64,000 nt of DNA, from contig DATHJY010000003.1 in assembly GCA_035489575.1 (NCBI GenBank), positions 53,800 to 117,799 on the forward strand. Reading direction: 5' to 3'. The notes beneath the pieces were generated by a model, which saw only the letters and a list, made by a program, of their open reading frames with translations, did no database searches and had not been told where the DNA came from. Positions 10,221-19,751 of this stretch are shown here, in pieces (positions within the stretch are counted from its first letter, which is position 1; the number at the start of each line of letters is the position of its first letter). The stretch comes from Verrucomicrobiia bacterium. Lineage in GTDB: Bacteria; Patescibacteriota; Saccharimonadia; Saccharimonadales; JAGQNK01. Made by a program: the position numbers and the translations under genes.

Positions 10221-10297
10221 GGGCCAGTAGCTCAGCTGGTTAGAGCACCTGCCTCTTAAGCAGGGTGTCGAGGGTTCAAGTCCCTCCTGGCCCTCCA
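10221..10297 (+). tRNA. tRNA-Lys (anticodon CTT), CCA encoded
   Basis: cloverleaf: acceptor gggccag/ctggccc, D-arm gctc..gagc, anticodon stem cctgc/gcagg with loop ctCTTaa, T-arm gaggg-ttcaagt-ccctc, then tcca. Confidence 0.9.
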
Positions 10298-10301
10298 GAT
10301 A

Positions 10302-10331
10302 AAAAGACCTACCGAAGCGTAGGTCTTTTTA
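10302..10331 (+). terminator. rho-independent terminator after tRNA-Lys
   Basis: agacctac-cgaagc-gtaggtct hairpin followed by ttttt. Confidence 0.6.
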
Positions 10332-10467
10332 TCTGGTTGATTATCGAGAGACTTGAACCCGGGAGGGTGAGGACAGCCCGGTGGCTGTCCGAATTTTCCA
10401 TGCTTGGCCTCACACAAAAATGCTTGAAGTAGCGAGTCCCACTGAGGGCTCGGCGCTCCAAAACACT

Positions 10468-11559
10468 CTAAACTGGTCGACTCTCCGCAGGAACCTCCAG
10501 GCTTTCCGGCTTGCCGTTTCTGTTCAAGATCATGCCGGCTTGCTGCAGGAAAAATGCGCCAGGGAGACATCTGAGCTCGTTCATAGGCAGATCCGGATAC
10601 CAGGTACGCATCATTTCTAGCACGTGAGTAGTACCGGTTTCTAGGCGGATACCAAGCGCAGCAGACCAACCCAAAATAGTAGCGGTCTGGACACGCGCCC
10701 AAAAATTAATGAGCTCCAGGTCTACTTCGCTGCCCGTTTGTTCGTGATATGCTGTCGCAGCGCTCTTAACGGCTTCTCCCAAACCTAGCGCCGCCAGATG
10801 TCGGAGCTCTCGCTCTGGACTGCTCGGCTGGGTAGCCCCAAAGTCGATGACGCCGACAGGCACGTAGCACGGCTGATCGACGGAGCCGCTAGTGGTAAAA
10901 GTTAAATTGTTCGGACGCAGATCGCTATGACCAATAATCGGTCGAGGTTCCACGCCGTCAGGAAAATAGGCCAAGTGTTCTTGGGTCAGATCTTCCACGA
11001 TGCCAGCGAGCCTAGGGACGCCCATTTGCTGCAAAAAATCGGCGTTCATACTCAATCGGTAAAGCCTCTCTGTTCTGTCAGCAAATAGCAAAGGCTCGTC
11101 ACCGACGAGCTCGAAAAACTTGCCTGGGGTGATTGTTTGAGCCAACCACGCGACAAAGCTACCGATTTTGGTACCGAGCTCTTGCTGCGCCACTGGATCA
11201 AGCTGGTAGTAGCGGTTCAGCTGATCCGCGGTAACCACATCGCCCTCCACATAAGTCGATACCACAAAACCCGTACCGTCATCGTCCGTGTCGGTTTCGA
11301 TGAACTGTGGCACATGCAGAGGCGGCTCGCACGCTGCGCTGTCGAGTTCGTCGAGCATCATGGCTTCATGCCATGAGTGATGCCGCCCTCTGTCTTTATC
11401 GCGCAGCAACTTTACTACTACGCGCTCGCCGTCCCGCTGGCCAAAATGAACCGCCCCGTACGCCCCGCTAGCATCAGAGGGTTGGTCGAAAGACACCCCA
11501 AACCACGACTCCAGATACGCGATATGTGCTGCTTCGGAAGCCATGCCTGTAGTCATCAA
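10468..11559 (-). CDS. aminoglycoside/choline-kinase-like phosphotransferase (APH) family protein
   Basis: Brenner-type catalytic loop HSDLRPNNLTF and VIDFGAT (DFG-like) motif; kinase-like N-lobe VVVKLLRD. Confidence 0.6.
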   Translation of the reverse strand: MMTTGMASEAAHIAYLESWFGVSFDQPSDASGAYGAVHFGQRDGERVVVKLLRDKDRGRHHSWHEAMMLDELDSAACEPPLHVPQFIETDTDDDGTGFVVSTYVEGDVVTADQLNRYYQLDPVAQQELGTKIGSFVAWLAQTITPGKFFELVGDEPLLFADRTERLYRLSMNADFLQQMGVPRLAGIVEDLTQEHLAYFPDGVEPRPIIGHSDLRPNNLTFTTSGSVDQPCYVPVGVIDFGATQPSSPERELRHLAALGLGEAVKSAATAYHEQTGSEVDLELINFWARVQTATILGWSAALGIRLETGTTHVLEMMRTWYPDLPMNELRCLPGAFFLQQAGMILNRNGKPESLEVPAESRPV

Positions 11560-11655: not shown

Positions 11656-12192
11656 GTGTTTTTCGCGTCTAAGCTTCGCAACCTCTCGTACATAGAGGTA
11701 AACTTCGATAGAAGGTGTTCCACCTACGGGCAACTTGGCCCTCCATTCAAAAAGCTCACTCGTAAAAGTGGGCTTTTTGAATGTTATGATTTAGATATGC
11801 ATAAAGCACAAGTTGATACGCTAGACCTACGGCAAGCCATCGAAGCATCGTGGCAACTCGATTCGGCTTATGAACATATAGAAGAAAGGGGCAACCCATC
11901 CCTGGGGCAGTGCCATGTTACGGCACTTGTCGTACATCACTACTATCCAGAAACCAGGATTGTTGAAGGCGAAGTGCAAACCGGCAAAGGTTTAGAAAAA
12001 CATTTCTGGAATATGTTCCACATAGATGGTCACGACTTGCACCTCGATTGGACTTGGCAGCAATTCCCACACGGTTCAACGATTAAAAGTTGGAAAGTGC
12101 GTGCAAAAGACGACATAAATAATAGTCAAGATACTACTGATAGATTCAAACGACTATTGCGCAGAGTTAAGTATGAGCTAAGTAAACTTTAG
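11656..12192 (+). CDS. hypothetical protein
   Basis: 178-aa ORF (GTG start; internal ATG at 11797 possible); His/Trp-rich conserved-looking core; no known motif. Confidence 0.4.
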   Translation: MFFASKLRNLSYIEVNFDRRCSTYGQLGPPFKKLTRKSGLFECYDLDMHKAQVDTLDLRQAIEASWQLDSAYEHIEERGNPSLGQCHVTALVVHHYYPETRIVEGEVQTGKGLEKHFWNMFHIDGHDLHLDWTWQQFPHGSTIKSWKVRAKDDINNSQDTTDRFKRLLRRVKYELSKL

Positions 12193-12210
12193 TTTTTAGC
12201 AGCGCTCACT

Positions 12211-12252
12211 TTGACATTAAGTACTACCAGGTGTACTATATAAAGTACTATG
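12211..12252 (+). promoter_or_regulatory. sigma70-like promoter (TTGACA-17-TACTAT) with triple GTACTA operator repeats (12-bp spacing) for yefM-yoeB module 1
   Basis: TTGACA 12211-16, -10 TACTAT 12234-39; GTACTA at 12221, 12233, 12245 overlapping the -10 and ATG; resembles the E. coli yefM TGTACA operator. Confidence 0.5.
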
Positions 12253-12504
12253 AATGTTACATCTATCTCCAAGTTTCGTAAGGATACTAAGGGTTATTTT
12301 GATAAGGTCATTGATGACAAAGACGTTCTTCTTATAACGCGCAACGATGGCCAGACGGTTGTTGTAATGTCTTTAGATGAATACAACTCTAAGGCCGAGA
12401 CCGATTACCTAAACAGCAGCCCTGATAACCGAAAACATCTGGAGAAATCCATTGCCTCACTGCACGCGGGCAAGACTGAAAAGCACCACTTAGTAGAAGA
12501 ATAG
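12250..12504 (+). CDS. yefM: Phd/YefM-family antitoxin
   Basis: 84 aa; SISKFRKDTKGYFDKV...ETDYL YefM signature; ends 1 nt before yoeB. Confidence 0.8.
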   Translation: MNVTSISKFRKDTKGYFDKVIDDKDVLLITRNDGQTVVVMSLDEYNSKAETDYLNSSPDNRKHLEKSIASLHAGKTEKHHLVEE

Positions 12505-12505
12505 C

Positions 12506-12766
12506 ATGGCTCGTATTATAGCTTTTACCCCAGAAGGGTGGGACGACTACCAATTTTGGATGAATCAAGACAGAAAAACCCTCAGAAAGTTACATAAACT
12601 TATTGCCGACACGCAAAGGGACCCGTTCAATGGTCTAGGCAAGCCAGAACCTCTCAAAGAAAACTACGCAGGGTTTTGGTCGCGCCGCATAGATGAAAAG
12701 AATAGATTCGTTTACGCAGTTACAGAGAAAGAAATACAGATCATCAGCTGCAGGTTTCATTATTAG
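12506..12766 (+). CDS. yoeB: YoeB/Txe-family toxin (ribosome-dependent mRNA interferase)
   Basis: 86 aa; WDDYQFW...RDPFNGLGKPEPLK...SRRIDEKNRFVY...CRFHY is a canonical YoeB. Confidence 0.8.
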   Translation: MARIIAFTPEGWDDYQFWMNQDRKTLRKLHKLIADTQRDPFNGLGKPEPLKENYAGFWSRRIDEKNRFVYAVTEKEIQIISCRFHY

Positions 12767-13040
12767 CAGGTATGAAGTTGATCCTGACAATATCTATGAT
12801 GGCCGTCCAGGATAGGAGCCGGCTTTTCCCATGGTTGTTATTCATCTGACGTGAACACAGAATACGCCTAAACATCTTTCTCCTCCAAGTCTGCGAGGTA
12901 GACTTTGCCGTTATGATACTCCATGCCGAGGTCAACCAATCTGGCATATAATAAGATTAAATCTTCAATGAGATCGTCGATAGGCTGGGGTTTCAAAAAA
13001 GTATATGGTGCCAAGAAAAGAACTGAAAGACTTCAGTTCT

Positions 13041-13178
13041 GGGGACTTGAACGGGCATGCCCTGTGGGCATTCCCCGCCCTTGGTTTTTGAGCTGTGCTC
13101 AAAAATGCCCGTATGCAAAAGTAATTTTCTTATGCCGGGCAGGGCAAGTCCCTCCTGGCACTCCAATTCGGTTATGCT
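13041..13178 (+). repeat. ~135-bp repeat copy A with terminal inverted repeats; 3' end mimics the tRNA-Lys 3' end (att-like / MITE-like)
   Basis: ~80% identical to 15934-16066; 5' ggggacttgaac is the inverse of 3' gcaagtccctcc; 3' end gcagggcaagtccctcctggcactcca vs tRNA gcaggg..ttcaagtccctcctggccctcca (15/15 core). Confidence 0.6.
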
Positions 13179-13183
13179 TAAAA

Positions 13184-13209
13184 CAGAGGTAATTTGCCTC
13201 TGTTTTTTG
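13184..13209 (+). terminator. intrinsic terminator hairpin (cagagg-taatttg-cctctg + T6)
   Basis: perfect 6-bp stem plus T-run; 25/26 identical to a second copy at 21286-21311. Confidence 0.55.
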
Positions 13210-13222
13210 ATACACTTTTACT

Positions 13223-13750
13223 ATGAAATTGATTTTTATCTATGGACCGCCTGCTTCAGGAAAGTTAACCGTTGCAGAAAAGTTGTCAGAAGCTACCGGC
13301 ATACCACTTTTTCATAATCATCTTTCCAGAGATATTGTTAAAGATATATATAGGGATGAGCTTGGAAAGCGTTATGACTTAGTAGATAAAATTAGATTCG
13401 ACGTACTAGAGTACTGTGCAAAGAATAATACTGACTTGATTTTCACTTATGTTTACGGAGGATCCTTTGACGACAATAATGTAAGAGATTTCATTAACAT
13501 AATCGAAACTAATAGAGGCAAGGTTTTGTTCGTGGAGTTAACAGCAAACGTAGAAGATTTAATAGATAGAGTTGATAATGATTCTAGAAAAAGATTCAAA
13601 AAACTTACCGATAAAGAAATAATGGCGAAGCTATCAGAGGATATGTCTAAATTCTCAATTCCGTACGTAGAGTCTCTAAAGATCAACACTTCTGACTTAA
13701 GTTCTGAAGAGGCGGCAAGCCTAATTGCCAATGAACTACGATTGGTGTAG
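13223..13750 (+). CDS. P-loop NTPase / small-molecule kinase-like protein (AAA_33 / chloramphenicol-phosphotransferase-like fold)
   Basis: Walker A YGPPASGKLTV at N-terminus; 175 aa; strongly AT-rich codon usage unlike neighbours. Confidence 0.6.
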   Translation: MKLIFIYGPPASGKLTVAEKLSEATGIPLFHNHLSRDIVKDIYRDELGKRYDLVDKIRFDVLEYCAKNNTDLIFTYVYGGSFDDNNVRDFINIIETNRGKVLFVELTANVEDLIDRVDNDSRKRFKKLTDKEIMAKLSEDMSKFSIPYVESLKINTSDLSSEEAASLIANELRLV

Positions 13751-13864
13751 CTCTTCGTTGAAACTTGGTTGCAATAAGCTCTACGGCGGCCCTCCATACA
13801 AAGAACGTCGATCTTTTCGCTACCGGTGGGCGTTTTTTGTTTGATAAAATAATCTAGCGGATCT

Positions 13865-14686
13865 TTATTTTGATTCGATCTTTTCTATCACGGCAATACA
13901 ATCCAACTGTTGAATTAGGCCATGCTTACTTCTAATGAAGCCTAGGGCAGCTTGTTGGATGACTACTGGAATATCTGGCCACTGTTTATTGAGGTAGAAT
14001 TCTACAATTGATTCCGTATCTTCAGGGTTACTGTCAATGGGGATCTTTAACTCAGACTCACTGACATGTCGGGTAATCCTTAACTTGTTAATATTTGGAA
14101 GTGCGGACACAACGTCATCAATAGTCATGGCCGAGAAGCTCTTATCAGAAAGAAGTGGTTTAAATTTCATTTTAAACATGTACGCATCGTCCTTATCACG
14201 AAGAACAATAATAAGTCGCCCCTGGGGTTTGAGAAGAGACAGCATCTTTTCTAATTGCTGGGGCCATGAGGAGCGGGGAATATGGTAGAAAAGATGGGCG
14301 GCGATTATTGCATCAAACTTTTCGTTGCTCGAGAAGTTATCGAGATCAGAAGGAGCAATCGTCACGTTAGCTCCTGGAAGAATGACATCAAATCGGCCTT
14401 TTAGTTGTCTGACTAGGTCGGTGCTTGGTTCAACCAGAGTGAGGCGAATATCTTCCACATTCTCCATCCGAGATAACGCAAGACTAAGATATTCACCATT
14501 GCCCGCGCCGAGGTCTAAGATATTAGATTCACTACCAAGGGCTTGCAAAACGTTAGAGAGTTGCTTGGCTGACATTTCTTTTTGGTTTGTATATCTCAAG
14601 AAGGTCTCAAAAGGTGATTCGTTTTTCTTGTTCTTATATTCAAAGCCACTCGATTGTTTACTTACAGTCATAGACTGATTATACAT
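13865..14686 (-). CDS. class I SAM-dependent methyltransferase
   Basis: motif I ILDLGAGNGEYL, acidic motif II (LTLVEP), motif post-I; no DNA-MTase motifs; AT-rich. Confidence 0.7.
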   Translation of the reverse strand: MYNQSMTVSKQSSGFEYKNKKNESPFETFLRYTNQKEMSAKQLSNVLQALGSESNILDLGAGNGEYLSLALSRMENVEDIRLTLVEPSTDLVRQLKGRFDVILPGANVTIAPSDLDNFSSNEKFDAIIAAHLFYHIPRSSWPQQLEKMLSLLKPQGRLIIVLRDKDDAYMFKMKFKPLLSDKSFSAMTIDDVVSALPNINKLRITRHVSESELKIPIDSNPEDTESIVEFYLNKQWPDIPVVIQQAALGFIRSKHGLIQQLDCIAVIEKIESK

Positions 14687-14706
14687 CGCTTCTCATGTCC
14701 CCCGGG

Positions 14707-14760
14707 TTGACGTACGTGAATAGTGTGTGTACAATATTGCGTACAAGGAGTTGTACAATG
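14707..14760 (+). promoter_or_regulatory. promoter (TTGACG-17-TACAAT) with triple (T)GTACA operator repeats for yefM-yoeB module 2
   Basis: TTGACG 14707-12, TACAAT 14730-35, SD aaggag 14745-50; TGTACA/GTACA at 14728, 14741, 14752 (12-bp spacing). Confidence 0.5.
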
Positions 14761-15012
14761 AAAATAGCATCCATCTCGAAGTTTCGGAAAGACATAAAGC
14801 GCTATGTTGACGAAGTCGACCAAGATCAAGAGCCGTTAGTGGTAACACGCGGGGATAATGTTTCCGTCGTTGTGATACCTCTCAACACTTTTAACTCCTA
14901 CTCAGAAACTGACTACCTACTGCGCAGTCCAGCCAATGCCCGTCGCTTGCTAAAATCAGTGGAGAGCGCCCGTGCAGGCACTGTCGAGGCTCACGAACTC
15001 ATCGAGGAATAG
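14758..15012 (+). CDS. yefM: Phd/YefM-family antitoxin (second copy)
   Basis: MKIASISKFRKDIKRYVDEV...ETDYLL; the 14695 track ORF is an upstream extension; ATG 14758 has an SD. Confidence 0.8.
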   Translation: MKIASISKFRKDIKRYVDEVDQDQEPLVVTRGDNVSVVVIPLNTFNSYSETDYLLRSPANARRLLKSVESARAGTVEAHELIEE

Positions 15013-15015
15013 CCG

Positions 15016-15276
15016 ATGAGCCGAAGACTTACTTTCACAGCTCAAGCCTGGGAAGACTACCTTTATTGGCAAGGGCACGATAAACAGCTGCTAAAAAAGC
15101 TTAACCAACTACTAAAAGATTGTCAGCGAGACCCGTTGGCTGGGATTGGCAAACCCGAACCGTTGAAAGGCGATCTGTCAGGTGCATGGTCCCGCAGAAT
15201 CAATGATGAGCATCGTCTAGTGTATATCGTTGCCGACGAAGAAATAAGAGTCTCCTCCTGCCGCTACCATTATTGA
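15016..15276 (+). CDS. yoeB: YoeB/Txe-family toxin (second copy)
   Basis: WEDYLYWQ...RDPLAGIGKPEPLK...SRRINDEHRLVY...CRYHY. Confidence 0.8.
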   Translation: MSRRLTFTAQAWEDYLYWQGHDKQLLKKLNQLLKDCQRDPLAGIGKPEPLKGDLSGAWSRRINDEHRLVYIVADEEIRVSSCRYHY

Positions 15277-15354
15277 GGCGCGAATCTTAGTTGCGATAGC
15301 GTCTACTATGGCCCTCCAAAACAAGAGCTCCCTTCCCGGAGTTCTTTTTTTGCT

Positions 15355-15930
15355 ATGATAATAGAAATGCATGCCGATATTTTTAGGTGGTTTGCCGCGG
15401 TCGCTTTTTTAGGCTATTGGTCTACGGTCACGTTTTTATTAGCTCATTGGCCACGCAATAGATCAAAAAGCCTTAGTGACCATATCGCCACAGGAAAGAA
15501 ACAAATCAACCTGCTTCTTATCGTAGTGACAATAGAAACTTCTTTGTATGCCCTCTACTTTTATAATTGGTTCATTCCTACTTTTGGCATGTCGGCAATT
15601 TTCACATGTTTGATTACGATTGCTCTCATAACTCATTTAGCGACATTCGTGTTTCCAAGCACTCAGGGTAGGGTCAAAAGGACGCACTGGCTTGTGTCGT
15701 ACATAACAGCGCTTCTATTTATTCCATCTGCGTTATTACTAATTGCGCAATCAAACATACCACTAGCTGGGAGGTCGGCCGTAGTTGCTGCATTAATAAC
15801 TATGGTAGGCATTTCTTTGGGGCTATATGCGACATCACTTTTTCGCAGACACATACTCATTGTCCATTGCACATATATTTTTTCACTGCAGCTAGCTGTA
15901 GTATTTATATCGTTTTTAGAAGTGTCGTGA
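15355..15930 (+). CDS. hypothetical polytopic membrane protein
   Basis: 191 aa, ~5 hydrophobic helices. Confidence 0.45.
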   Translation: MIIEMHADIFRWFAAVAFLGYWSTVTFLLAHWPRNRSKSLSDHIATGKKQINLLLIVVTIETSLYALYFYNWFIPTFGMSAIFTCLITIALITHLATFVFPSTQGRVKRTHWLVSYITALLFIPSALLLIAQSNIPLAGRSAVVAALITMVGISLGLYATSLFRRHILIVHCTYIFSLQLAVVFISFLEVS

Positions 15931-15933
15931 TCG

Positions 15934-16066
15934 GGACTTGACCGGGAAGATCTTGTGGCTGTTTCCCGCCGTTGGCTTTGAGCTGTGCTCAAAAATGCCT
16001 GTATGCGAAAGCATTTTTCTTTCGCCAGGCAGGTCAAGTCCCTCCTGGCTCCCCAAAGAAAATACA
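15934..16066 (+). repeat. ~135-bp repeat copy B with an 11-bp terminal inverted repeat and tRNA-Lys-like 3' end
   Basis: 5' gggacttgacc / 3' ggtcaagtccc (perfect 11-bp TIR); 3' ggcaggtcaagtccctcctggc shares the 15-nt core with tRNA-Lys; ~80% identical to copy A. Confidence 0.6.
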
Positions 16067-16785: not shown

Positions 16786-16989
16786 CCTCTTTTCTCGGTT
16801 TTCAATCAGCCGTGCGGCTACCAACTTGACAAACAAAGCCAATGACGGGATTATACGCAACAAATAGGTTTGACGCAATGGACGAAATATGTATTGCATA
16901 TGATATCTTACCCCTGTATACTGTGCCGGAACGATCCAAGATGGGTGGCTCGTTTTTTTGGACCTTCACAACCGAATTTGGAGGCTTAT

Positions 16990-18552
16990 GTGTCAGGCGG
17001 TATCGCCCTGGTAACCCCCTTCACCAAGTCCCATCGCACCGCCGAAGAGACTTTGGCGCTGGGGTACCTCGCTGCCGTTTTGCGTCATGCCGGACATGAT
17101 GTCTCTGTCGTTGATGGCTGGCTCGAAGCGCTCACCCTCGAAGAACTCGTCGATCGCATCGGCGCTGATGGACCCCCGGCCCTGGTCGGGATGTCCTGCT
17201 ATCAGTCCAACCTGCATCAGGCTGAACAAGTCGTACAGGCCCTCCGGGCTCGCTACGGCGATATCCCCGTGATCTGTGGCGGCTACGGCCCCACGTTCCA
17301 CGCGGAGTTCTTCCTGAAGGCCGGTTTCACCGTCGCTGTCATCGGCGAAGGCGAACACATCATCGTCCGTCTGGCGGAAGCGCTTATGAACGGGACCGAC
17401 CTCGGTTCCATTCCGAGCATTGCCTTCCTCAAGGATGGCCAGATGATGGAGACACTGCGGGCGGAACCGATCGTGGATCTGGACGAGATACCTTTCCCGT
17501 CCAGAGACACGGTGGGGCACGCCATTACGCGACGGAACTTCGTCCATGTCTGTACTTCACGCGGCTGTGAGGCGCACTGCAGCTTCTGTTCCATCTTCGC
17601 CTTCGCGGCCGGTGGATCCAGCAAGCTGCGTTGGCGTCACCGTGGTATCACGAACATCGTTGATGAACTCGAAGTCTTGCACCGCGAGTTCGGTGTGAGC
17701 GCCTTCAAGATCGTCGACGACAGCTTCATCGAACCGCCACGTGACGAAGCGTGGGCCGAAGCGTTCCGGGACGAGATCCTGGGCCGCGGGCTCACCATTC
17801 GGTTCCGTACTCAGGTGCGTGCCGACCGGCTCACTCCGGACATTGTCCGGGCACTCAGTGAAGCCGGTTGGTTCTCGACTGCGGTCGGCATCGAAAACGC
17901 GGCGCCAACCGCCCTCCGCCGGATGCGCAAGTTGGCATCCCCGGAAGACAACGAGGTAGCCCTCCAGCTCCTCGAAGCGCACGGCGTCTACGTCCAGATG
18001 GGCATGATCCTGTTCGACCCGGACACTACTCTGGACGAACTGGAGATCAACTTGGGGTTCCTGCGGCGCAACCGCTGGCCCTTCACTAAGGGGATCTTCA
18101 CCGAGATGTACGCCGCCGAAGGCACGCCGTTCACTGGACGGCTCGGCCGACGCGGACTGCTCGTCACGGCGAACGCCCAGAACTACAGCTATGAGGTTCA
18201 GGACCCGACGGTCCGGCGAGTGTATGAGATGCTCAAGTCCTGGCACCGTGCTCACAGCACGGTCTATGACTGGGTGATCGACTCACTCACCGCACCCAAG
18301 GTTTTGCCTGACGTTGCTTTTCGCGGGGCGCATGCTCTGTGTCGCCAGCTTCAGGCTATGGATCTTCGGTTTCTCGAGACTGTGCTCAGTCGTGTCTCGG
18401 AGGCTGCAATCCCCAGCGAAGACAGTGAGTTCGTAGCAGAATGGATTCGCACCGCGGAATCGTTCTACGTCGGCATCGAGGAAGCAATTGCTCGTCTCTA
18501 TGCAGACATCGGACTCCGGTACGAAGCTGTTCCCAACCCGTTCCTCACGTAG
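16990..18552 (+). CDS. B12-binding domain radical SAM protein (class B radical SAM, methyltransferase-like)
   Basis: N-terminal B12-binding Rossmann region (IALVTPF...LGYLAAVLRHAGHDVSVVDGW...ICGGYGPTF). CxxxCxxC in CTSRGCEAHCSFC. GC-rich. Start modelled at GTG 16990 after ggagg. Confidence 0.75.
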   Translation: MSGGIALVTPFTKSHRTAEETLALGYLAAVLRHAGHDVSVVDGWLEALTLEELVDRIGADGPPALVGMSCYQSNLHQAEQVVQALRARYGDIPVICGGYGPTFHAEFFLKAGFTVAVIGEGEHIIVRLAEALMNGTDLGSIPSIAFLKDGQMMETLRAEPIVDLDEIPFPSRDTVGHAITRRNFVHVCTSRGCEAHCSFCSIFAFAAGGSSKLRWRHRGITNIVDELEVLHREFGVSAFKIVDDSFIEPPRDEAWAEAFRDEILGRGLTIRFRTQVRADRLTPDIVRALSEAGWFSTAVGIENAAPTALRRMRKLASPEDNEVALQLLEAHGVYVQMGMILFDPDTTLDELEINLGFLRRNRWPFTKGIFTEMYAAEGTPFTGRLGRRGLLVTANAQNYSYEVQDPTVRRVYEMLKSWHRAHSTVYDWVIDSLTAPKVLPDVAFRGAHALCRQLQAMDLRFLETVLSRVSEAAIPSEDSEFVAEWIRTAESFYVGIEEAIARLYADIGLRYEAVPNPFLT

Positions 18553-18572
18553 GACCCGACAGAGGAGATGCA

Positions 18573-19751
18573 GTGACAGATACCACCAGCACGCCGGTCG
18601 TGCTCTCGCCCCGAGGCGGCATTCCGCCCCAGATCGAGAACATCGGCTGGACGCTCGGCAATGCGTGTCCCTACCGGTGCCCGCACTGCTACTCCACCAT
18701 CGTCCGTACCGCCAGTCTGAACATGACGACGGCTCACGTCGATCGTGTGGTCAGTGAGCTGGCGAGCATCGGCGTCCGTACCGTCAATCTGGGTGGCAAC
18801 GAGCCGCTCTACACCAGCGGTCCGAACGCCAAGGACACGGTGCTGCCGCACATCATCAAGTCGCTGTATGGCGCCGGCATCGTCGTGGGTCTCACCACGG
18901 CCGGCATCACCATGCAGTACATGTACAAGCATCACCGTGACGCGGTGGAGTTGCTCAACGACTGCGACATCAGCCTCGACAGCCCGTTCCCGGAGGAGCA
19001 CAACCGCAACCGCGGTGCCGCTCTCTACCCTCGGGCGCTTGATGCGATCCGCATCTGTCGCGAGCTCGGCATCGACCGCACTATCGTCATGTGCGGCATG
19101 AACTGGAACCTGTCGGAGAGTCACCTCAAGGCGCTCGTCCAAGCGGCGCGCGAGCAGGAGACCTTCATTAGGATCAACTTCATGAAGCCGACCGAATCGC
19201 AGCACATGGATCTAGTGCCAAGCCCGGCGGATTTCTACGCCGCGTGTGAGTACCTGTTCCGTCACTGCGACATCATCGAAATGGGCGAACCACTTGGTTC
19301 GGCTATATCCGGTGCGAAGTCCCGTGGCTGCCCTTGTGGCACGAAGTCGTTCCGGATCCACTCGATGACCGCCGACGGCAAGCTGCCGGTCAGCCCGTGC
19401 GTCTACGCCCACCAGTACAAGGTGGGAGACCTCCTGACTGACAGCCTCTACGACATCGTGCGCACCCCGGAGTTCCAGGCGTTCCGCCAGCGGCGACACG
19501 ACCCGGATTCCATCGCGGAATGCCATGGCTGTGAGTACGTCGAGGAGTGCCGGGGCGGCTGCGCCGCGCGTGCCTACCTGTGGCGGGAGTTCACGGAAGG
19601 TGGCGGTTCGATCGTGACCGATCGTGACCCCTACTGCCTCAAGGACTTCGGAGACTCCGGTCTCACGCCGCCGGCCAACATGGTCATGCAGGACAAGGTG
19701 CTCGTTCACCGCGACTACCTCTGCACGGTCATCGGGAAGCCGAAGGACTAA
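18573..19751 (+). CDS. radical SAM / SPASM-domain protein (peptide- or cofactor-modifying maturase-like)
   Basis: N-terminal CPYRCPHCY (CxxxCxxC); C-terminal Cys-rich SPASM region CHGCEYVEECRGGCAARAY plus CPCG...SPC; GTG start 18573 with gaggag SD; 21-nt gap after the upstream rSAM. Confidence 0.75.
   Translation: MTDTTSTPVVLSPRGGIPPQIENIGWTLGNACPYRCPHCYSTIVRTASLNMTTAHVDRVVSELASIGVRTVNLGGNEPLYTSGPNAKDTVLPHIIKSLYGAGIVVGLTTAGITMQYMYKHHRDAVELLNDCDISLDSPFPEEHNRNRGAALYPRALDAIRICRELGIDRTIVMCGMNWNLSESHLKALVQAAREQETFIRINFMKPTESQHMDLVPSPADFYAACEYLFRHCDIIEMGEPLGSAISGAKSRGCPCGTKSFRIHSMTADGKLPVSPCVYAHQYKVGDLLTDSLYDIVRTPEFQAFRQRRHDPDSIAECHGCEYVEECRGGCAARAYLWREFTEGGGSIVTDRDPYCLKDFGDSGLTPPANMVMQDKVLVHRDYLCTVIGKPKD

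Follow-up and report, generated by a model that had tools for sequence, protein, structure and literature searches.

Several described systems resemble the array reported here. Integron arrays, including the integrase-less CALIN, consist of cassettes with attC sites, and the head of an integron is attI with an adjacent intI gene. The tycheposon islands of Prochlorococcus, CIME/ICE accretion and archaeal integrated elements use the 3' part of a tRNA gene, the SCC and composite islands (large serine recombinases CcrAB) the 3' end of rlmH, and the CTX phage (XerCD/dif) has a folded single-stranded attP. Saccharibacteria are naturally competent episymbionts with reduced genomes of about 1 Mb, and their acquisition of accessory genes is poorly understood. 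Our searches, which covered the literature incompletely, turned up no account of a tRNA-anchored cassette array from Saccharibacteria or Patescibacteria.

Here we analysed a 64-kb stretch of DNA (the window), probably from a Saccharibacteria genome, in which two repeats (copies A and B) resemble the 3' end of a nearby tRNA-Lys(CTT). Our preferred reading of the sequence, to which we give a probability of roughly 0.6, is that A and B are the 3'-terminal recombination elements of two cassettes in an integron-like array anchored at this tRNA gene. Comparison of related loci (designated L) showed the same units in other orders in other genomes, with the boundary at the CCA.

Results

The initial annotation had described two repeats of about 80% identity, oriented like the tRNA, with its 3' end at their own 3' ends and its inverted T-arm at their 5' ends. 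Both repeats are real, lie approximately where they had been placed (Table 1) and carry CCA at their 3' ends; their alignment of 124 columns has 81.5% identity. In the window, the 15-mer CAAGTCCCTCCTGGC is found at exactly three places, namely the tRNA, A and B; with at most three mismatches, 9 matches were observed against 1.88 in shuffles, none of which gets 9. The repeated core is the last 21 nt of tRNA-Lys, CAAGTCCCTCCTGGCCCTCCA. In both copies, the 5' end, GGGACTTGA(A/C)C, is the T-arm GTTCAAGTCCC in reverse complement, and the 11-bp inverted repeat of copy B (GGGACTTGACC/GGTCAAGTCCC) is indeed perfect. The two copies bracket the P-loop kinase gene, the methyltransferase gene, toxin-antitoxin module 2 and the membrane-protein ORF. 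Moreover, a 20-mer from the centre of the repeat is exact in both A and B (0 expected by chance). Copy A is 83% identical to the copy of L011, from another species, slightly more than to copy B; A and B are therefore not a local duplication.

In copy A, GGGACTTG pairs with CAAGTCCC to form the closing helix P1 around three hairpins, and the tRNA-like 3' end reads CAAGTCCCTCCTGGCACTCCA. Its inverted repeat resumes 5' of a small hairpin (P0), into GGTGCCAAGA (13007-13016), which the initial annotation had overlooked. This left extension folds with an outer stem, and L013 and L015 are arranged alike. P0 was also considered as a minus-strand terminator, a reading not adopted, as no minus-strand gene has this hairpin downstream of it. 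The most decayed 3' end is that of copy B (CAAGTCCCTCCTGGCTCCCCA), and beyond copy B the GC content rises to 55-62% versus 39-44% for 12-16 kb.

The array behind tRNA-Lys consists of six small cassettes between 10.3 and 16.06 kb, each of which closes with a copy of the tRNA 3' end after an A-, C- or S-type element (Table 1). A unit is laid out as about 6 nt, a terminator or leader hairpin, 0-3 genes, the terminal element and the tRNA 3'-end copy. Cassettes measure about 0.2-2.9 kb, often hold one gene or none, and show no integrase remnants. The locus thus has inserted DNA between a tRNA and a direct repeat of the tRNA 3' part, as a tRNA island does. Two kinds of repeat had escaped the initial annotation: a decayed third structured repeat (C-type) directly past the tRNA terminator, and three short S-type repeats ending in GGCCCTCCA. 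This 9-mer occurs four times in the window (0.62 expected), always on the plus strand and inside the array. Terminator hairpins come after cores, and in about half of the copies after the CCA.

Table 1. Coordinates of the tRNA anchor, terminal elements and cassette cargo in the window
Feature	Position	Strand	Remarks
tRNA-Lys(CTT), array anchor (attB-like head)	10221..10297	+	ARAGORN; Rfam tRNA model 72 bits
Terminator hairpin, first element of cassette 1	10295..10336	+	stem CCAGATAAAAAG.../...CTTTTTATCTGG includes CCA of tRNA
C-type terminal element, decayed; makes ORF-less cassette 1	10346..10460	+	aligned with C-type copies of L013 and L009; first letters GAGAGACTTGAACCC, last GGCGCTCCA
APH-family phosphotransferase gene, cassette 2 cargo	10468..11559	-	Pfam PF01636, E 2e-12
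S-type element S1	11700..11745	+	core GGCCCTCCA at 11737-11745, then terminator 11744-11783; near-identical element in L019
YunG-family gene and YefM/YoeB toxin-antitoxin module 1, cassette 3 cargo	11797..12766	+	Pfam
Copy A, left extension	13007..13040	+	GGTGCCAAGA, inverted acceptor part TCCTGGCAC of own 3' end, then hairpin P0 13019-13040
Copy A, A-type terminal element	13042..13165	+	139.8 bits, covariance model
Cassette 4 leader hairpin	13180..13209	+	AAAACAGAGGTAATTTGCCTCTGTTTTTT; precedes kinase gene in L019 and L020 too
P-loop kinase (AAA_18) gene, cassette 4 cargo	13223..13750	+	Pfam
S-type element S2	13760..13796	+	core at 13788-13796
SAM-dependent methyltransferase gene (-) and YefM/YoeB module 2 (+), cassette 5 cargo	13865..15276		Pfam
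S-type element S3 and terminator hairpin	15282..15346	+	core 15310-15318; hairpin 15323-15346 opens cassette 6
Membrane-protein ORF, cassette 6 cargo	15355..15930	+	no Pfam match
Copy B, A-type terminal element, distal array end	15933..16055	+	125.7 bits, covariance model

The same architecture stands directly behind tRNA-Lys in related Saccharibacteria contigs, namely L009, L011, L013, L015, L019, L020 and L021-L030. The kinase cassette is preceded by all three types of end, A in the window, C in L019 and S in L020, with kinase protein identities of 91% and 74% across these contexts, and its similarity begins 6-7 nt past the CCA. By this comparison, the leader hairpin is part of the kinase cassette and moves with the kinase gene between genomes. 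The kinase has 547 homologues at E up to 1e-5, and identity is 65-91% among the 120 of the 547 matches listed. L021 and L028, two strains with the same sequence up to and including the first core, diverge exactly there and then carry different cassettes. In both cases the cassettes of other genomes have their boundaries where the repeats end. Similarly, strain differences among the L021-L031 arrays are whole cassettes with breakpoints at the sites. A unit without ORF, made of a terminator, an A'-type element and a core, stands behind the tRNA in L030 and behind S-type ends in L021 and L022. For the A-type cassette, neither an excised circle nor a single-population empty-site pair was observed. 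Pattern-search matches in L012 (Alcanivoracaceae) and L014 had no similarity past the pattern and were set aside.

About 105 nt on the 5' side of the tRNA-like end form a conserved, covarying four-way junction in several Saccharibacteria. In the alignment of six A-type sequences, 94% of the cells are paired. Compensatory change was found at 11 pairs against 4.7 +/- 1.4 in shuffles (0 of 500 shuffles reach 11), with far lower values in slid controls, though these statistics rest on only six close sequences that are related to one another. The outer stem is GTGCC/GGCAC in copy A versus GGCC/GGCC elsewhere, a compensatory difference that keeps the pairing and leaves the tRNA sequence. G.U occupies 13 cells versus none for A.C, which points to a fold on the tRNA-sense strand. 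The z-scores of the fold are -3.6 and -5.0 as RNA and -5.8 and -6.3 as DNA.

The initial annotation had suggested, among other options, a structured tRNA-like sRNA. As the fold is strand-specific, such an RNA may exist, but ARAGORN called no tRNA in the repeats and recognised only the genuine tRNA-Lys, and the Rfam tRNA model did not match A or B at E up to 10. The resemblance to tRNA is confined to the last 21 nt, with no recognised cloverleaf. Nor did any Rfam 15 family match the A-, C- and A'-type copies (E up to 10 in the window, E up to 1 in six related loci), and the DNA directly upstream of A and of B holds no promoter-like site.

In the window, L013 and L015, whose host T-loop is TTCAAGT, the core reads CAAGTCCC; it reads CGAGTCCC in L019 and CGAGCCCC in L021, L028 and L030. 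The inverted 5' arm changes along with it, from GGGACTTGAAC to GGGGCTCGAAC. Across these loci, the tRNA-like ends evidently follow each host's own T-arm sequence.

No recombinase domain was found in the window by Pfam annotation of most called genes, nor within 10 kb of the L020 array, and no cassette of the window, L019, L020 or L021-L031 carries an integrase; the recombination step is therefore only one that we infer. A prophage of oral Saccharibacteria beside tRNA-Lys, with a tyrosine integrase of 285-291 aa, was considered as the source of the missing recombinase and rejected, because comparison with the free phage puts its junction at a tRNA-Arg(TCT) 3' fragment on the opposite strand. 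In addition, a large-serine-recombinase element was found at two kinds of end: in L134 it adjoins the 3' end of a genuine tRNA-Phe, and in L026 the left end, tRNA-like and inverted, of a C-type element. From these junctions, this element evidently uses tRNA-like ends as att sites in these Saccharibacteria arrays. As a mover of the cassettes it was set apart, being a separate insertion in L026 with 95-bp inverted repeats.

Discussion

We propose that the cassettes, as circles or single strands, bear a tRNA 3'-end copy through which they undergo site-specific recombination with the 3' end of tRNA-Lys. Integration would rebuild the tRNA gene with the cassette's own terminator, and older cassettes would be pushed distally, where their ends would decay. 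The recombinase would be supplied in trans and not encoded in the array. With less certainty, the A-type body may act as a same-sense single-strand fold, in which the tRNA-derived 3' strand pairs with its own inverted copy. Such a fold would mimic, as a duplex, the stretch of the tRNA gene from T-arm to acceptor, would be closed by the three-hairpin junction, and would be analogous to an integron attC or the folded attP of CTX phage. Less probably, cassettes might be exchanged by homologous recombination between the conserved ends.

A tentative and rather doubtful extension of this proposal is that Saccharibacteria own an integron analogue, in which a tRNA gene serves as capture site, folded single-strand ends mimic the tRNA 3' end and an unlinked recombinase acts in trans, perhaps on single-stranded DNA taken up by the host. 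It might possibly reach other Patescibacteria, as a locus at tRNA-Trp (L010) would suggest.

The A-type element might instead be a structured non-coding RNA gene of about 125-160 nt, with a cloverleaf-like four-way junction and a tRNA-like acceptor end with CCA, though we consider this unlikely. Such an RNA would either belong to tRNA-Lys as a resident partner or travel as cargo in ORF-less cassettes. Its tRNA-like 3' end would function in the processing or stability of the RNA or in CCA-dependent recognition, and the T-arm of tRNA-Lys may be a pairing partner of its 5' arm. The strong covariation and the G.U-only asymmetry on the tRNA-sense strand fit it, and this asymmetry, the terminators after about half of the CCAs and the conserved junction nucleotides suit an RNA equally well as a recombination site. 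Terminator hairpins stand directly after the CCA in copy A, L013 and L015. In four of the five clade genomes (L009, L011, L013 and L015) the first unit after tRNA-Lys is an ORF-less A-type unit, which could be a resident functional gene or site instead of a cassette end. With the P0 extension both ends make an acceptor-like stem with a free NCCA tail, and in L013 and the A' copies the 5' arm fits the tRNA T-arm (11 nt) better than its own 3' strand. However, this acceptor-forming extension is absent from copies B, L009 and L011, the element starts about 15-20 nt past the tRNA terminator in L011 and L009, and the missing upstream promoter-like site and the blank Rfam and ARAGORN searches also count against an RNA gene. 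Moreover, an RNA gene leaves unexplained why the 3' 21 nt match the host tRNA in every species and why cassette boundaries fall exactly at the CCA.

Passive attR scars of classical integrase-bearing islands or prophages in tRNA-Lys, whose integrases have since been lost and whose upstream part is P-arm DNA, are improbable. Such scars would leave a partial tRNA 3' end on the far side of inserted DNA of lower GC, as is seen here, and tRNA islands are known to accrete in tandem and to decay with distance from the tRNA (tycheposon preprint). On the other hand, units this small, often with one gene or none and without integrase remnants, are not classical islands, and compensatory changes and strand-specific G.U pairs are unexpected of protein-binding arm DNA. 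The inverted 5' arm also tracks the host tRNA, and with their conserved junction the repeats are more than mere scars. No viral contig in IMG/VR carries the element, and viral contigs gave nothing or chance coding matches to the termini pattern, the central hairpin, the core-leader junction and the S-type motif; the 16-nt core has 76 loci in IMG/VR, of which only three are real tRNA-Lys genes. The sole prophage found beside this tRNA sits, as described above, in the neighbouring tRNA-Arg. Among the three options of the initial annotation, the attR-type reading is nevertheless the closest: A and B mark distal ends of units serially inserted at the tRNA-Lys 3' end, with coinciding boundaries in other genomes.

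A tRNA-derived MITE- or SINE-like transposable element, which would explain terminal inverted repeats of 9-11 bp (about 20 bp counting the P0-interrupted left end) and the shifting of ORF-less units of about 190 bp as blocks, is very improbable, since every covariance-model match in the window and in 254 kb of related loci lies within tRNA-anchored arrays in the tRNA orientation, the only two species-representative genomes matched have the element directly behind tRNA-Lys, the copies found in public-collection scans are all linked to tRNA-Lys, and the target-site duplication would be nothing but the tRNA 3' end itself.

Behind tRNA-Lys, a conserved hotspot that stacks self-terminated mini-cassettes of kinases, methyltransferases, NUDIX, GNAT and APH-type enzymes and toxin-antitoxin pairs would be a concrete mechanism of gene capture for this phylum. 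Structured ends that track the host tRNA would add a recombination site of a new type, or else an RNA family that is new. If the integron analogue is true, its ends would form a new class among structure-specific recombination sites, and these reduced genomes would gain genes mainly by this route. In practice, the array can also serve as a marker to type strains, and it offers genetic tools a candidate neutral landing site.

Like integron arrays, those of L020-L031 consist of small, mostly single-gene cassettes in one orientation, whereas cassettes in the array of the window hold 0-3 genes, and their orientation is mixed. As in integrons, strains differ by entire cassettes and the breakpoints are at the sites, toxin-antitoxin cassettes are present and sites decay away from the array head. 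Similarly to attC, the terminal elements vary in sequence and length, keep their structure and could act as folded single strands. On the other hand, the head is a tRNA gene and not attI with an adjacent intI, and an integrase is absent nearby. By inspection, the A-, C- and S-type ends lack the R''(RYYYAAC)...R'(GTTRRRY) boxes of attC, with GGGACTTGA...TCAAGTCCCTCCTGGCCCTCCA as ends. The cassettes here also appear to bring their own terminator and an extended -10 promoter, and the strand asymmetry favours the top (sense) over the bottom strand.

The array shares with tycheposon islands, CIME/ICE accretion and archaeal integrated elements the insertion at the tRNA 3' part with duplication of this segment, the distal displacement of older elements by new ones and the partial-tRNA repeats through the island. 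The hosts of tycheposon islands have streamlined genomes with few other mobile elements, likewise here (tycheposon preprint). Unlike those islands, the units here are far smaller and none has an integrase, and their ends are structured, RNA- or ssDNA-like and covarying, with an inverted copy of the tRNA end. As in the folded attP of CTX phage, the 5' part of the element is an (interrupted) inverted copy of the target, so that folding of the strand would restore the tRNA gene from T-arm to acceptor as a duplex; the target here is a tRNA gene instead of dif, and the single-strand fold is predicted from sequence. Finally, SCC and composite islands, whose CcrAB are large serine recombinases like that of the element described above at tRNA-like ends, differ in target and host, but short direct repeats from the 3' end of a conserved gene likewise bound their cassettes, and some cassettes in SCC arrays have no recombinase genes and are mobilised in trans.

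Results

Copies A and B within a cassette array

The initial annotation described two repeats with tRNA-Lys-like 3' ends and inverted T-arm 5' ends, and these proved to be real direct repeats of 81.5% identity (here A-type). At the 3' end, both carry CAAGTCCCTCCTGGC-N-C-N-CCA; their 5' ends read GGGACTTGA(A/C)C, which is the T-arm in reverse complement, and in copy B the inverted repeat is perfect over 11 bp. Within the 64 kb there are exactly three occurrences of the 15-mer CAAGTCCCTCCTGGC, one in the tRNA and one in each copy, and an exact central 20-mer is common to both copies, none being expected by chance.

A and B belong to a regular series, unseen in that annotation, which includes C-type and S-type repeats (Table). 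Because of this regularity, 10.3-16.06 kb reads as six units, each of which opens with a terminator-like hairpin immediately behind the previous CCA, continues with zero to three genes and closes with an A, C or S terminal element whose end copies the tRNA 3' end (the core). The 9-mer GGCCCTCCA, made up of the 3' strand of the acceptor and CCA, has four occurrences in the window against 0.62 expected, in all cases on the + strand inside the array at 10.2-15.3 kb, and conservation is also seen in ~30 nt upstream of the short S-type cores. The GC content is 39-44% over 12-16 kb versus 55-62% in 16-20 kb just beyond. No recombinase was found in the 64-kb window.

Table. Features of the window and prophage loci in other contigs
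Feature	Position	Remark
tRNA-Lys(CTT)	10221-10297	sole tRNA gene of the window
Terminator hairpin after core	10293-10338	
C-type repeat	10346-10460	third structured repeat, decayed; directly 3' of tRNA terminator
S-type short repeats (three)	cores at 11737, 13788, 15310	+ strand; end in GGCCCTCCA
Short open frame	12868-12999	minus strand
Copy A	13042-13165	A-type direct repeat
AAA_18 kinase	13223-13750	175 aa
Copy B	15933-16055	A-type direct repeat
High-GC block	16870-19751	~3 kb, just past the array
APH-family kinase		cargo
YunG + YefM/YoeB		cargo
P-loop kinase (the AAA_18 kinase above)		cargo
Methyltransferase + second YefM/YoeB		cargo
Membrane protein		cargo
Prophage	L039 13000-14889	
Prophage	L040	
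Prophage	L041 9360-10934	
Prophage	L131	
Prophage, free form	L129 8082-8700	

The terminator hairpin after the core is extended, in that the core (C)TCCA pairs with TGGA(G) beyond the T-tract, as it does in related contigs (L013 1841-1886, L019 130-175, L028 2135-2182). Thus, each terminator sits between two convergent tRNA-like ends, which goes beyond an ordinary bidirectional terminator. The cassette leader TTATGCTTAAAACAGAGGTAATTTGCC (window 13172-13222; L021 5351-5380; L019 328-380) resembles the tRNA-Lys promoter spacer TTGCAAAAACAGAGGTAATTTGCTAATAT of relatives. Since this leader and then an extended -10-like TGNTAnnnT precede the start codon, the latter by ~10-15 nt, the cassettes seem to carry a predicted promoter of their own. 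The short open frame between YoeB-1 and copy A (~43 codons, TTG start, ending in ...KPQPIDDLIEDLILLYARLVDLGMEYHNGKVYLADLEEKDV before the stop) may be the remnant of a gene or encode a small protein. The block past the array has 60-62% GC against mostly 42-58% in other parts of the window and codes for two enzymes, one a B12-binding radical SAM and the other a radical SAM/SPASM protein. At this point L016 and L017, contigs from other samples, either differ or break, suggesting a second variable segment.

Cassettes in different contexts and strains

Further arrays were located through homologues of the kinase cassette of the window. The kinase is preceded by copy A in the window, by a C-type end in L019 (91% identical kinase) and by an S-type end in L020, a 979-kb scaffold in which tRNA-Lys is followed by four single-gene cassettes divided by S-type ends. 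In all three, similarity begins 6-7 nt past CCA, leader hairpin included. For the AAA_18 kinase, 547 homologues were recovered (E up to 1e-5); among the 120 listed, identity is 65-91%, and their sources place some in different phyla (Saccharimonadales, Limnocylindrales). Such strong conservation is unusual in an accessory gene and may point to frequent horizontal transfer.

In closely related strains (L021-L031), arrays of up to ~10 kb carry small same-orientation genes with cassette-wise presence or absence, and end elements distant from the tRNA are degenerate. L021 and L028 are 100% identical over the tRNA and first unit and diverge exactly at the core of that unit, and an ORF-less block of terminator, A'-type (A-like) element and core lies behind the tRNA in L030 and behind S-type ends in L021 and L022. 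Cassette boundaries in other strains therefore coincide with repeat ends, the check that the initial annotation had proposed. Separate assemblies break in or at tRNA-Lys (L002 position 1, L009 position 4004), the outcome expected where members of a population differ in the downstream array.

The tRNA-like ends match the resident tRNA: they read CAAGTCCC where the T-loop is TTCAAGT, CGAGTCCC in L019 and CGAGCCCC in L021, L028 and L030, and the inverted 5' arm of the A-like element shifts in step from GGGACTTGAAC to GGGGCTCGAAC.

A-type relatives and their fold

When one genome per species was scanned with a termini pattern, true homologues appeared in two Candidatus Saccharibacteria MAGs (L009, L011), and a 5'-half pattern gave two more in JGI metagenomes (L013, L015). 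In all four, the A-type comes first among the units behind tRNA-Lys plus terminator, and its last 21 nt are exactly those of the tRNA; C- and S-type ends lie downstream in the same contigs. A covariance model matched at full strength (126-151 bits) only the six A-type sites and weakly (15-37 bits) C-type and A' copies, all within arrays and in tRNA orientation, with no other match in the window; the element matches no Rfam family. On the minus strand of L010 (uncultured bacterium, 160-920), three ORF-less structured units stand in tandem behind tRNA-Trp, one with the 5' arm GGGACTTGAA. Each ends in the tRNA-Trp 3' end GGGTTCAAGTCCCTCCTGGCCTG; the principle extends beyond tRNA-Lys.

The consensus of the six A-type sequences is a four-way junction with three hairpins and a closing helix (P1), in which the 5' arm pairs with the tRNA-derived strand; 94% of cells are paired. 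Compensatory changes occur in 11 pairs versus 4.7 +/- 1.4 in shuffles (0/500 reach 11) and 1-5 in register-shifted controls, and single copies fold far better than shuffles under RNA and DNA parameters alike. Selection maintains intrastrand pairing in the A-type body. With 13 G.U cells against zero A.C cells in the alignment, it is the tRNA-sense strand that folds. The element extends upstream in copy A, L013 and L015: (TGG)-N-GCCAAGA is followed by a small hairpin (P0) and GGGACTTGAAC, and on the opposite strand this stretch gives the entire tRNA 3' end in interrupted form (GTTCAAGTCCC..TCTTGGCA.TCCA in L013). In the modelled fold, the extended ends can form an outer, acceptor-like stem, and that of copy A has a compensatory change, GTGCC/GGCAC, off the tRNA sequence yet with pairing kept.

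Recombinase elements near tRNA-like ends

A large serine recombinase gene lies between perfect ~95-bp inverted repeats (L026 208-300 and 1952-2045). One end of this element abuts a genuine tRNA-Phe 3' end (..GAGCC/ACCA) in L134 (9400-9607); in L026 (junction L026:2046) it abuts the left end, tRNA-like and inverted, of a C-type element. Its recombinase has 7876 homologues at E up to 1e-30, ~60% identical, from sources named Saccharibacteria, Nomurabacteria, Negativicutes and Veillonellaceae. Separately, a Saccharibacteria prophage from a human oral metagenome adjoins tRNA-Lys (Table) and encodes a tyrosine integrase of 285-291 aa. Targeting of tRNA-Lys by it was ruled out: its attachment core is the tRNA-Arg(TCT) 3' half on the opposite strand, and thus it targets the convergent neighbouring tRNA gene.

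Discussion

Taken together, the anatomy of the array, cassettes that swap contexts, a breakpoint located at the core and ends that track the host tRNA identify A and B as cassette-end elements of a capture site anchored at tRNA-Lys. No enzyme was found for the recombination step, which is thus inferred. The A-type may be a folded single-strand recombination site that would rebuild a duplex copy of the 3' segment of the tRNA gene, by analogy with attC and CTX attP. Such a function is supported by three observations: the strand that pairs is precisely the recombining core, cassettes are bounded at the CCA of that core, and the tRNA-like end of these elements serves as an insertion site (L026). 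The probability that these structured ends are a new kind of folded recombination site is substantial, though well below even.

A structured RNA with a tRNA-like end also fits the data, given the G.U asymmetry, the terminators that follow CCA in some of the copies and the element's frequent place as first unit behind the tRNA, but no promoter-like site was found for it. The attR-type reading of the initial annotation was essentially right in placing the copies at integration boundaries and too narrow, since passive att scars would not show the selection for pairing seen in these structured cassette ends. Homologous recombination is favoured less than site-specific exchange, because the three contexts of the kinase cassette have no sequence in common on its left side except the 9-21-nt core.

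As a capture site for cassettes, the array resembles integrons in its small cassettes, strain-variable content, structured variable end sites and toxin-antitoxin cassettes, but it lacks an adjacent intI and the attC consensus, the defining features of an integron. Tandem accretion at tRNA genes is shared with tycheposon islands, whereas tRNA-targeting islands carry element-encoded integrases that the array lacks. No description of a comparable array was found in the searchable literature, whose coverage is incomplete. The array is most suitably classed as a new variety of site-specific cassette capture.
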